Positions 50,451-61,582 of a stretch of 64,000 bases of DNA are shown piece by piece. Made by a program: the position numbers and the translations under genes. The stretch is taken from NCBI RefSeq assembly GCF_000181795.1, contig NW_003526941.1, forward strand, positions 8,424,495 through 8,488,494, in the 5' to 3' direction. The notes beneath the pieces were generated by a model. It saw nothing but the letters and a program-made list of their open reading frames with translations. It did not search any database and was not told the origin of the DNA. The DNA is from Trichinella spiralis (taxonomy: Eukaryota). Within the stretch, counting starts at the first letter, position 1. Each line of letters starts with the position of its first letter.

Positions 50451-50800
50451 ATGCAGTTCTTCGCATTTCATCTTTTAATTTTAATTGTTTATTGGGATAG
50501 ATTTTTCATAGTACAATCTCAGAAAGCAAATGATGGTAAATGATATTATATTTCTTCAATTCCTTTGAATATATTACTTTTTTCATAGACTTTCAAACAG
50601 AAGATTTGAGAAAGAATCTTGCTGTACAAAAAAAGCATATATTACTTAAAAAATCAAACTTTTTCATTTGGCCTTATGGTTATTATTATGGTTATGGTTA
50701 CAGTTATCCATTCAGGCGTTTTACAAGGGATCTACGTAGGCGAAGGTTCATGAATCGAAGACGACGAAGATTTTACCGTTTCGGTCGTTTCTTCTTTTAA
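50451..50800 (+). CDS. Small secreted peptide precursor with Tyr/Gly-rich and highly Arg/Phe-rich C-terminus, 2 exons
   Basis: MQFFAFHLLILIVYW...KAND|DFQTEDLRK...WPYGYYYGYGYSYPFRRFTRDLRRRRFMNRRRRRFYRFGRFFF*. Phase-1 GT-AG intron ~50536-50588. Confidence 0.7.
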
Positions 50801-51645
50801 ATAAACTAAATGCCATAAACAATTTTTATCAATAACTTCAGTTGCCTAAAAATAAACATGCTACTTCCATAAATATGATTTTTCATCTTATGGCCGGCTA
50901 GAGATGAAGTAAAGTGCTGCTGTTTGGCACAAGTCAGTTTTTGAATTTCTCATTTTCGACCGCATTATGCGTATTATTTCCCGACAGCGTTGTACAAAAT
51001 GTAAATATATTTGTAAAAAAAGTTATTAGATAGAAATCATGATTGAGAATTACCGAACACATTTACAAGTAAGTAAACATGTCACAAAGCATTTTGTTGA
51101 AATAAAATTACATCAAAACGTTGAAACGTCCTGATAAATAAAAATTAAAAATTCCACTCACTGACTACAAATTTGAATCATCAAAAAAGTGATCAACAAC
51201 TCCGTTTATATACATCGATTCACCGCGCAGCATTTATTATTCGAACATTAAACTTCCATTTAAAATAATTTACTCAAAATTGTTCACCACATGCTTGAAA
51301 CATTTCATAGTAGAAAACAAAAAGAAGAAAATTATTTTTTCATTACAGCTACAGTAAGATGTGCAGGAAATTGTTCGTTCATCTATGCAGAATTAAATGA
51401 CAAGAAAAGCAACGTCAATCTTACGGACAGTTGATGTGAATTGTTGATAAAAATCGCCTTCAAAATCTAGAGTACTTTGCACGGTGAAAAATTTTCGCCT
51501 GCAAACAACGAGCAATACCAGTTGCTGATTGTCGCCAAACATTAATCAAAGTTCAATCGATTTCATATTTAATATTATTTAAATCCAAAAAAAAACAATT
51601 CCCCCCTCCCCCAAAGCAGAGCTGAGGTGCTCTGTTTGCAATAAA

Positions 51646-52005
51646 ATGAACAATTTAGCATATTTTATCATAACTGTTGCAATAACTGTTAGCGTTGATT
51701 ATTCAATCGCAATACCGACAACAAGTGCAGTGCAGTCAGGTAAGAAATTCAATTTGTTTTTCCCGCATTGCAACTACGAAACTATTACATTAAAATACTG
51801 TACAGATATTTCCAAAGAAAATTTGACAGAACAGCTCGCCGATCAAAAAAATCAGTTACCTGAACATGTTGCTAAATTCTATTCATCATTTGGATTCTTT
51901 GGTCCGTTCAGTATTGCTGGCTATGATAGTTTTGAGTTGTTTTACCCTCATTACACGAGCTATTGGCAAACAGGTGGATACCCATTCATCAATTGGTGGT
52001 TATGA
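51646..52005 (+). CDS. Small secreted peptide precursor with aromatic-rich C-terminus, 2 exons
   Basis: Signal MNNLAYFIITVAITVSVDYSIA, phase-1 intron 51740-51805 (gtaaga...tacag), then ...FYSSFGFFGPFSIAGYDSFELFYPHYTSYWQTGGYPFINWWL*. Confidence 0.7.
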   Translation: MNNLAYFIITVAITVSVDYSIAIPTTSAVQSGKKFNLFFPHCNYETITLKYCTDISKENLTEQLADQKNQLPEHVAKFYSSFGFFGPFSIAGYDSFELFYPHYTSYWQTGGYPFINWWL

Positions 52006-52178
52006 TGCCTAAGGCTAATGACGATTAATGTCAAGAATGTTTTGTGACATGCTAAATAAATAAATATATATATATATATGTATACATATACATTTACCGC
52101 TTTGCTTGAATTTTGCTCGAAATAAAACAAAAAAGTGATTTTATTTATTCCACAGACAAAGAATCAATTCAAGACATT

Positions 52179-59529: not shown

Positions 59530-60432
59530 GTTTGTTTTTTTTTCTCCGAGAAAAAATTCCGTCGCTTTGAAGAGATTCGGTTATTCAATTTCTCGTTGTA
59601 TATAAATGCAAATTTTTTTTCAGTGCGTGGCCGTTGATAAATGACCCTGTCTTCTAGGATAAAACGACCGATGAATTTCTTTCGTTTTTTTTTCTCTTCT
59701 TGATTCGCTCCAATGCAAATCTATGCCTTCAACGATTGATTAATAAATAAATCAATTATATTGACCTTGGAATAAATTTGGAAAAAAAATATCAAAAATT
59801 AATTTTTTTACCACGACAGTAAAAAAAATCTTGCCTTCAGCGGTGATGAAATTGATTCGGGGTCTTTTCACTTGCACAGCATTGATAATTTTATATAAAA
59901 TTCTCGTATTTATTTGAACATTCGAATTCAAACTTTCCACAACAGGGTGCAGCTCTTAAGATGAAAAATTTTTCTTCATTTCACAACTGGAAACTGGAAA
60001 TTTTGAAATCATTTTCTTCTTGTAATTTCACACCCAAATGTACAAACTACCCGTTTCCTTTGACAAAATATTGACCTTATCTCGGCAATATTGAGTTGTA
60101 TGCATTATGCAGAAAACTGGAATTTATCAAAGGTTTAATAAAATGGTGGTGATCAAAAAAAATTAAAATTTAACTTAAACTACCCACTGCTGTCATTTAT
60201 TAATTTAATTTATAAACTAAAATTTTAATAACACTGTTTTTTTTTGTTGTTGATTTGTTTTCATTTTCATTCTGCGAATGTTGATGCAAGAATTATTTTT
60301 ATTGAAAATCAAGATCCAACAGTAGCCTGTTTTGAACTGCCCGAAGGTGTGAACTTGAAAATAATTGATTTTTTTAATTTTATTTTTCACGCGACGTGTA
60401 AACAGCTCATTTATGATTTGTCTGCTTAGTGT

Positions 60433-60458
60433 CGTTGTTGTTGTTGTTGTTGTTGTTG
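60433..60458. repeat. (GTT)n microsatellite
   Basis: cgttgttgttgttgttgttgttgttg. Confidence 0.85.
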
Positions 60459-60940
60459 CTAATTTTCACACCGTCGATGAAAATGAACCTGATTGATATT
60501 CCACCAATTATGCAGTTGATATAATTTTATAATAATTTAAACAAATTAAAGTAACCAAAAATTTTGAATGAAAGTGAGAAAATTTTCAAATATTCTTTTC
60601 AAAAATTAAAGACATTCCCAATTGCCATTTTTCCATTTCCACTGTACCAGAATTGCAATTTTGAAATACGTGTGAAAGTGTGACGATGGGCAATTTGAAA
60701 ATATCCAAAGGCATAAAAAGCATTTTTCTCGTTCCTATGTGGAACAAATGTCTACTTCTGTATGCATGTGTTTGAACTTGTGTAATTTTTTTTCTTTTTT
60801 GGTTCTTCAACGCCACGCCACTCAAATTTCAAATTTCCCTTTGGCACATTTTGTAGAATGTTTGCCAGTCGTTGATTATTTGCAACTGTTGTCGTGAAGG
60901 CCGACTGACAACCTTTATAATTGTCCTTTTAATAAACAAT

Positions 60941-61582
60941 ATGATTTTGTATTTTGTGCTATTTTGCATTGCACAATATTTGCATACCAATTCCGCAATT
61001 CCACTCGGTATGTTTATTGTGTTTTTTGTGGACTTGCATTTGTTAATTTAAAGTATTTCAAAATCAAAAGAAAAAATTTTAATGAAAAAAATGAACTTTT
61101 ACCATTTGAAATATTATCATACATATGCAATTAATCGGTAGATATTAATGCAAAATTTCTATCAGTTCAACGGCTTTAATAACACGAACCATTGTTTGTA
61201 ATATAATTTCAACTGAATTTTTCATTTTAACATTATTGCCATCAATGCAACCTTTTGCATTTTGCTTTCCTACATACTGCGCGTTGAGTTCAAAATTGAT
61301 TTTTTTCAAAATCGATTCATTATACCTTTAGAAGATAACACTGTTGCATATTTAATAAATGAACATAAAGTGGAAAAGCGTCAACTGCTACGTGGTTTGG
61401 AGCGTGAAATACTGCGGGATGATCGACTAATGGATCGAATGATAAATCAAGAATTTCGAGACGAAAGAATAATGAACAACCAGCTGCGTCGTGATGAGCG
61501 ACTTATGATGAGAGACAATATGATACCTTTTGGTGGTGGATTATACAATGATCCATTTATTCAACCTTACGGTGGTTTTTAG
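60941..61582 (+). CDS. Prepropeptide with tandem RD(D/E)R(L/I)M repeats and Gly/Tyr/Pro tail, 2 exons
   Basis: MILYFVLFCIAQYLHTNSAIPL|EDNTVAYLINEHKVEKR-QLLRGLEREILRDDRLMDRMINQEFRDERIMNNQLRRDERLMMRDNMIPFGGGLYNDPFIQPYGGF*. Phase-1 intron 61008-61331. Confidence 0.75.

Follow-up and report, generated by a model that had tools for sequence, protein, structure and literature searches.

Four small genes of the nematode Trichinella spiralis, here called G1 to G4, encode short precursors that can be compared with several described groups of secreted peptides. They lie in a stretch of 64,000 nucleotides (the window, meaning the whole stretch of DNA that was analysed), which protein searches assigned to this species. 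Among nematode antimicrobial peptides (AMPs), the glycine-rich secreted peptides (GRSPs), to which the nlp/cnc type is counted, are short (at most 200 amino acids), Cys-free proteins having a signal peptide, Tyr-rich stretches and, by definition, >17% Gly in the mature part, whereas the Cys-stabilised classes (CSab, nemapore and diapausin) have a Cys array (PMC10506718; this and the other papers cited here are represented by parts of their text and tables). The same source counts about 3 known AMP genes per genome in Trichinella and Trichuris, the lowest number of any nematodes, and leaves unexplained why this should be so in worms that live in the gut. Proline-rich AMPs (PrAMPs) are described as having at least 25% Pro and a charge of at least +1, with a PRP motif being indicative, and with antimicrobial activity and an intracellular target (the 70S ribosome or DnaK) being essential (PMC7736402); the string 'nematod' occurs nowhere in the searched text of a 2024 review of invertebrate PrAMPs (PMC11678341). 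The myticalins of mussels combine a signal peptide, a phase-1 intron, a dibasic site and a Pro/Arg/Tyr-rich cationic peptide with an anionic, C-terminal pro-region, and are multigenic and hypervariable (PMC5577615). Trichinella also has small, genus-restricted proteins with signal peptides, namely SML-1, -3, -4 and -5 and the excretory-secretory (ES) orphans of Korhonen 2016 (PMC7673540, PMC2680962, PMC4740406).

With the latter group G1–G4 share small size, restriction to the genus and a (predicted) signal peptide. They resemble the GRSPs in being short (86–105 amino acids), in having a predicted signal peptide and Tyr-rich stretches and in being free of Cys, but their Gly contents of 5–7% after the signal peptide, or 8–12% in the predicted mature parts, mean that they are not GRSPs, and the membership in an nlp/cnc-like group that had been proposed in an original prediction, made from the DNA letters only, does not hold. 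That prediction was right about the Cys-free C-terminal peptides, with 0 Cys in the predicted mature part of all four, which also separates them from the Cys-stabilised classes. The motifs of the four were absent from the phylum-wide nematode AMP tables in a search of the supplement of PMC10506718. The reading that we favour, with a probability of roughly 0.5, is that G1–G4 are four genus-conserved precursor genes of three lineages (the duplicate pair G1/G2, G3 and G4), having the roles considered below, and that the three lineages look alike because such a layout is widespread among precursors of secreted peptides.

Gene models and conservation

Enumeration of splice choices gave, at all four predicted starts, a GT-AG phase-1 intron without any internal stop in the coding frame. 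The original claim of four genes with a phase-1 intron after the signal peptide was thereby confirmed, with G1, G2 and G4 being annotated proteins, while G3 reads the same as T01_4229 when compared by eye with a published table.

50451-50535 and 50589-50800, plus strand: exons of G1, T01_2777 (KRY36566), 98 amino acids, identical to the annotated T. spiralis protein
51646-51739 and 51806-52005, plus strand: exons of G2, T01_13438 / XP_003380767, 97 amino acids, identical to the annotated T. spiralis protein
51740-51805, plus strand: G2 intron of 66 nt, in frame and stop-free, so that a retained intron would lengthen the protein by 22 residues, two of them Cys
59507-59426 and 59342-59164, minus strand: exons of G3, T01_4229 = nAMP-LP-257, 86 amino acids, with a KR-Q site
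60941-61007 and 61332-61582, plus strand: exons of G4, KAL1230805 (identical), T01_13057 and XP_003380770, 105 amino acids, with a KR-Q site

The other introns are 53 nt (G1), 83 nt (G3) and 324 nt (G4) long, and those of G1 and G2 rest on annotation in several species and not on sequencing reads. An unspliced form of G2, of 119 amino acids, is possible, yet five of five database proteins correspond to the spliced form. T01_13057 and XP_003380770 represent the G4 gene with different modelled 3' ends. The arrangement as a tandem pair (G1 and G2, both on the plus strand) and a divergent pair (G3 on the minus and G4 on the plus strand) was as predicted, with the pairs lying about 7 kb apart.

All four proteins have a hydrophobic N-terminus (best 9-residue mean 2.8–3.4), on which the signal peptides given here are predicted; the published table lists SignalP 'Y' for G3 and for the G1 orthologues. 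Orthologues of all four were found in encapsulated as well as non-encapsulated Trichinella species, in agreement with the check on sister species that had been proposed, and the four are real, conserved genes for small precursors with predicted secretion. Outside Trichinella no relative of G2 was found when 1.84 billion representatives were scanned in full with HMMER, the sole protein returned being the T. pseudospiralis orthologue, and none of G1, G3 or G4 in word-seeded searches that were limited by length and that covered G3 and G4 by way of one mixed profile. No Pfam family matched any of the four (G2 searched whole, G1, G3 and G4 with exon 2), NCBIfam gave nothing usable (one LipL31 match, which at E 0.13 missed the cut-off by far), PDB sequences gave nothing usable for G3, a metagenome scan with G3 gave no relative, and the ESM Atlas gave nothing usable, its best score of 0.80 being a lead only. 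The names 'microspherule protein 1', 'Legumain', 'SecA', 'Uridine kinase' and 'TBC1 domain family member' attached to database entries are automatic mis-labels, which we rejected because the proteins have about 100 amino acids and no such family matched.

The proposal that the system was undescribed could not be upheld, as all four genes are annotated and two of them appear in a published table of AMP candidates; identifier searches of the literature gave no Trichinella paper on these genes among the matches listed. The shared architecture, which had been taken as evidence of one system, carries little weight. A phase-1 intron near the signal peptide is a general bias of secreted proteins, such introns being over-represented near signal-peptide cleavage sites (PMC1626468); against our use of this explanation stands that the survey covers vertebrates, arthropods, fungi and plants, with nematodes not included. 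A crude scan for models of this layout, with a filter tuned on these same four genes, recovered three of them (G2 was missed) together with one Cys-containing model, and phase-1 Cys-free models were found in 0 of 25 resampled windows. As genes the four thus exceed chance, for which the direct evidence from annotation, orthologues and splicing is stronger than the scan.

Fast evolution had also been proposed, and identities of 75–96% over the approximately 21 My since T. spiralis and T. pseudospiralis split (PMC4740406) speak against it, most clearly in the case of G3 and G4. In the predicted mature parts 47/49 residues are identical between the two species for G3, 61/66 for G4, 35/42 for G2 and 36/48 for G1. 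The G3 coding sequence in one sequencing run, coming from another organism, differs at 1/231 nt, synonymously, as compared with 18/445 in a 3' flank contig that includes about 50 coding nt (Fisher p 0.006). Because of the identity over some 21 My and of this contrast between coding and flank, sequence comparison indicates that G3 and G4, at least, are under purifying selection and do not change fast. The KR-Q sites that had been noted in two genes are those of G3 and G4, and both are kept across all aligned orthologues; a processing site shared by the four does not exist, with KR-Q in two of four genes and G2 being without any dibasic site. The C-terminal F or L, taken as another common trait, holds in this window but not across species, since the final residues are YY in the orthologues of G4 and Y in the G1 protein of T. 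pseudospiralis. The T. spiralis G4 model ends two residues before its orthologues, its stop codon in the window being followed by one for Tyr (61580-61585), and public G4 models avoid this stop by splicing, in two different ways.

Relationships among the four genes

Clear homology was found for only one of the six possible pairs, G1/G2, which argues against the original claim of one family. It concerns a pro-segment encoded at the start of exon 2 in both genes.

50589-50642, plus strand: G1 half of the shared pro-segment, beginning at the exon-2 acceptor
51806-51859, plus strand: G2 half of the shared pro-segment, in register with G1 from the intron

Over these first 18 residues of exon 2, 7/18 amino acids and 34/54 nt are identical (binomial 1e-6), and the score was reached by none of 20,000 shuffles; the length of 18 was first prompted by a G1/G2 hhalign match (probability 13%) and was thus not chosen blindly, and the likeness was robust at all lengths between 12 and 30 residues (0/5000 resamples at each). 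The T. pseudospiralis pair has 6/18 identical residues. From the in-register similarity together with the adjacency of the genes, a tandem duplication is likely, after which the tails would have diverged to a net charge of +13 (Arg/Phe/Tyr) in G1 and −2 (Phe/Tyr/Trp) in G2.

The other five pairs had no convincing similarity. In the in-register test there was none for any pair with G4, and G1–G3 and G2–G3 gave weak signals, 55–250 of 5000 resamples being as good, at short lengths. A point that counts against three separate lineages is an 11-column aromatic motif shared by G1 and G4, with an hhalign probability of 15% as compared with the 13% of G1/G2, and a deeper kinship of G1 and G4 is a lead on that account; the motif score was equalled in 29/400 shuffles, using a pattern defined after viewing these genes, and the FIxPY-type motif (7–11 residues) is present once more at 26.4 kb, in a third gene. 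That G1–G4 form one fast-evolving, undescribed family or system of nlp/cnc type thus appears very improbable. The common coding layout, the proximity of the genes, the extent to which the tails of the paralogues G1 and G2 have diverged and the motif common to G1 and G4 can all be cited in its favour, but they are set against the lack of in-register similarity with G4 and its weakness with G3, conserved orthologues, a C-terminal residue that is not conserved, Gly contents below the GRSP level and the opposite transcript levels of G3 and G4 described below.

Two genes located farther upstream touch on this comparison. One, at 26348-27440 on the minus strand, has several exons, one of them rich in Pro, Arg and Tyr, and half a CBM_14-like Cys motif (Pfam E 0.45); its last exon is of Gly/aromatic composition, and the tail encoded there (26348-26587) is marginally like that of G4 (3/60 shuffled tails as good, hhalign 2%). 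In the other (30227-31200, plus strand) a Pro-rich stretch precedes half a domain of CBM_14-like type, with an E value of 0.0044 that does not reach the cut-off, and the frame 30227-30640 of this gene gave the best likeness to G4 of 2089 segments, which we judged marginal. The two are possibly a pair of matrix or chitin-binding proteins.

Transcription of G3 and G4

Four sequencing runs were aligned to positions 57900-62500, and the introns of both genes were seen, which answers the earlier call for spliced transcripts. The G3 intron was present in contigs of three of the four runs and the G4 intron in three of four, supported by 22 raw RNA reads with about 11 different starts and by two contig sets, with the orientation of the raw reads at the G4 intron being consistent with plus-strand RNA. 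The description of the genes as having two exons holds for the coding part but not for all transcripts, considering one further intron upstream of G3 and some G4 transcripts that continue past 61933.

59726-59810, minus strand: intron of 85 nt in the 5' untranslated region of G3, one contig in one of four runs

At the GT at 61933 (plus strand), 3' of G4, four raw reads and one contig depart from the genomic sequence, the acceptor sequence lying outside the window. Downstream of G3 and antisense to it, one contig in one of the four runs has a 326-nt GT-AG skip (58550-58877, plus strand), which is possibly a spliced antisense RNA.

In the run of raw RNA reads, with 148 reads aligned, G4 was covered to a depth of up to 52 and G3 by zero reads; a contig run that comes from another organism reached a depth near 1000 in its G3 contigs and contained no G4, and in the two remaining runs G4 was far above G3. 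Because the levels are opposite in different runs, the divergent pair is probably not co-regulated, G3 and G4 being likely under separate regulation. This conclusion is weakened by the fact that three of the four runs consist of contigs, for which RNA status was guessed and depth is a poor measure of expression, and that the run lacking G4 comes from another organism. The stage expression data of Liu 2012 were not used: neighbouring genes place the window at about Tsp_06902-06922 in that numbering, Tsp_06917 and Tsp_06920 are absent from the part of the data available, and Tsp_06921, high in muscle larvae, could not be assigned (PMC3429391). A CATG tag site is absent from the coding sequences of G3 and G4.

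Predicted peptides and their possible roles

The precursors of G3 and G4 are both ordered as signal peptide, pro-segment and KR-Q site, the pro-segment of G3 being short and rich in Glu and Arg. Convertases are known to cut at KR and glutaminyl cyclase to form pyroglutamate, and from this we infer that signal peptide removal in all four proteins would be followed, in G3 and G4, by cutting after KR by a furin/kexin-type convertase and by cyclisation of the exposed Gln to pyroglutamate, which would protect the N-terminus.

59167-59313, minus strand: predicted mature peptide of G3 after predicted processing, 49 amino acids, about 6.1 kDa, N-terminal Gln
61382-61579, plus strand: predicted mature peptide of G4 after predicted processing, 66 amino acids, net charge −1

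In G1 the predicted signal peptide is followed by a pro-segment, a Tyr/Gly-aromatic stretch and an Arg/Phe-rich tail; the predicted signal cut, after residue 23, would leave an N-terminal Gln, and the dibasic sites ahead of the aromatic segment are only RK or KK, with no KR or RR. Net charges of the mature peptides are +13 for G1 (its last 48 residues), −2 for G2, +8 for G3 and −1 for G4, with the boundaries of G1 and G2 being assumed. All four have aromatic tails, with 5–15 aromatic residues within the last 40.

The predicted mature G3 peptide agrees in composition with PrAMPs, having 13 Pro in 49 residues (26.5%, a value that depends on the predicted KR cut), a charge of +8 and one PRP motif (PMC7736402). 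Its likeness to the myticalins, in signal peptide, phase-1 intron, dibasic site and Pro/Arg/Tyr-rich cationic peptide, is an analogy only, considering that its pro-segment is N-terminal and its sequence conserved (PMC5577615). As judged from its composition, G3 would most likely release an antibacterial peptide of the proline-rich, non-lytic kind, with uptake and ribosome binding as a candidate mechanism, and we propose this antibacterial role tentatively, as somewhat short of an even chance. G1 would release an Arg/Phe-rich polycation that is likely to bind membranes or polyanions; the helical moment of its tail is not above chance (133/2000 shuffles as good), and the tail is like an active Arg-rich nematode peptide in kind only, that unrelated peptide having been active on six of six strains tested (PMC10414684). 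The best reading of their sequences is that G3 encodes a cationic defence peptide and that G1 perhaps does so too.

This part of the locus was already visible in the 11-tool screen of Irvine et al. 2023 (PMC10414684, S4), where G3 is nAMP-LP-257, 'Prioritised'. Its entry there gives the 49-residue peptide described above, along with a signal peptide and a single ProP site, and 82% of the 11 predictors called it an AMP. The G1 orthologues from six Trichinella taxa form nAMP-LP-189, which was dropped over length. The antimicrobial part of the original prediction is therefore in line with the published screen for G3 and G1, which are AMP-like. The searched part of S4 contained no motif of G2 or G4, and the examined parts of the paper make no mention of the clustering of the genes or of the paralogy of G1 and G2. 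Several points tell against a defence role. Eight of the 20 candidates synthesised in that study were active, and neither G3 nor nAMP-LP-189 was among the 20, both standing in the supplementary table without a minimal inhibitory concentration; the predictor score for G3 is unstable, because its orthologues range from 55% to 91%, one sequence matching T. spiralis being at 55% (PMC10414684). Finally, strong conservation, few copies and Tyr-rich tails suit structural proteins equally well.

G2 and G4 are unlikely to be classical AMPs. The tail of G2 is anionic (net −2) and 40% aromatic, with an AlphaFold model that gave no confident structure (pLDDT 35). The G4 model has a single helix over residues 24–84 (pTM 0.31), of which residues 40–84 are amphipathic (5/2000 shuffles as good) and contain three RD[DE]R[LI]M repeats, followed by a Gly/Pro/aromatic tail; because of this combination of amphipathic helix, repeats and neutral charge, G4 suits self-association or lipid binding more than the role of a cationic AMP. 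We suggest that both could self-associate as components of a matrix or of granules, and a cuticle or eggshell function is a plausible alternative, mainly for these two genes.

An extension of that alternative would make all four products structural extracellular components, of the cuticle, an embryo or egg layer, sperm or the matrix of secretory granules, trimmed by convertase and assembled via cation–aromatic contacts, possibly with Tyr cross-linking of the kind that occurs in nematode cuticle. We regard this as unlikely, though as the main rival of our reading: the aromatic tails, the strong conservation, the predicted long helix of G4 with its repeats and the presence of two genes with CBM_14-like half domains at 26–31 kb, one with a weakly G4-like tail, agree with it, while no Pfam family matched any of the four, the CBM_14 matches, at E 0.0044 and 0.45, do not reach the cut-off, the tail resembles that of G4 only marginally and the composition of G3 suits the PrAMP criteria better.

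An improbable alternative is that the peptides are host-directed effectors of the stichosome, with the gut epithelium or the nurse cell as their site of action; examples would be an Arg-rich G1 peptide that penetrates cells, or a G4 helix that binds lipid. Restriction to the genus together with secretion signals would fit such effectors, as would the amphipathic helix of G4. A 9-mer given as a PouStich example is found at 60876-60884 (plus strand), 57 nt upstream of the G4 ATG, but it occurs three times in the window as compared with 3.5 expected. Furthermore, the four gene identifiers were not found in the searched text of a muscle-larva ES proteome and PouStich list in which a control identifier was present (PMC11731790), whereas the SML proteins have been shown to be secreted by muscle larvae. 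Their absence is weak evidence, because the 10 kDa filter used in the ES study (PMC11731790) would lose peptides of 5–8 kDa.

Processing at KR-Q is typical of neuropeptides, and FMRFamide-like (flp) precursors have a conserved RF-G followed by a basic residue. A divergent neuropeptide precursor could thus be suspected in G1 (or in G3 or G4), as RR-FYRF-G-R in G1 would yield an RFamide and the motif is seen in five of nine G1 sequences, from both clades. We find this highly implausible, considering that the Gly needed for amidation is missing in the other four, that the motif arose in 7% of shuffles of the Arg/Phe-rich G1 tail and that G2–G4 have no repeated amidated peptides.

Other features of the window

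Between the two pairs lie three genes, two of which are protein-coding and unrelated to G1–G4, the third encoding tRNA-Met.

52179-53648, minus strand: unrelated housekeeping gene for APC8/Cdc23, limits being those of the stop-to-stop frame (PF04049, E 7e-15)
54580-56690, plus strand: multi-exon gene for a TBC-domain Rab-GAP, unrelated, with approximate limits (PF00566, E 5e-15 on one exon)

Elsewhere in the window, an open frame at 35822-36331 (minus strand), with a hydrophobic N-terminus, two Cys and no useful Pfam match, has the look of a small secreted protein. An intronless frame of 408 amino acids at 47248-48474 (plus strand) contains several hydrophobic stretches and matched no Pfam family above cut-off; as judged by eye, it is reminiscent of a divergent ionotropic-receptor-like chemoreceptor.

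Significance

Already on record for this locus were orphan precursors of a familiar type, annotated and restricted to the genus, two of which had been flagged as AMP candidates, with roles that are predicted. New here are the paralogy of G1 and G2, the splice and expression evidence for G3 and G4, and G3 as a candidate nematode PrAMP. In G1 and G2 a conserved pro-segment stands beside fully diverged tails, and if the products should be structural, they would still be genus-specific markers. A bolder version of our reading, which we consider quite unlikely as a whole, would have G3 as the first ribosome-targeting PrAMP of a nematode, partly filling the AMP gap of the clade I gut parasites, in a Trichinella-only, stage-switched kit whose duplicated pro-scaffold (G1/G2) would deliver aromatic peptides of opposite charge. 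As a single, conserved 49-mer, G3 can be synthesised cheaply and bears directly on the scarcity of AMPs in clade I, and if it were active in an SbmA-dependent manner, proline-rich AMPs would be extended to the nematodes.

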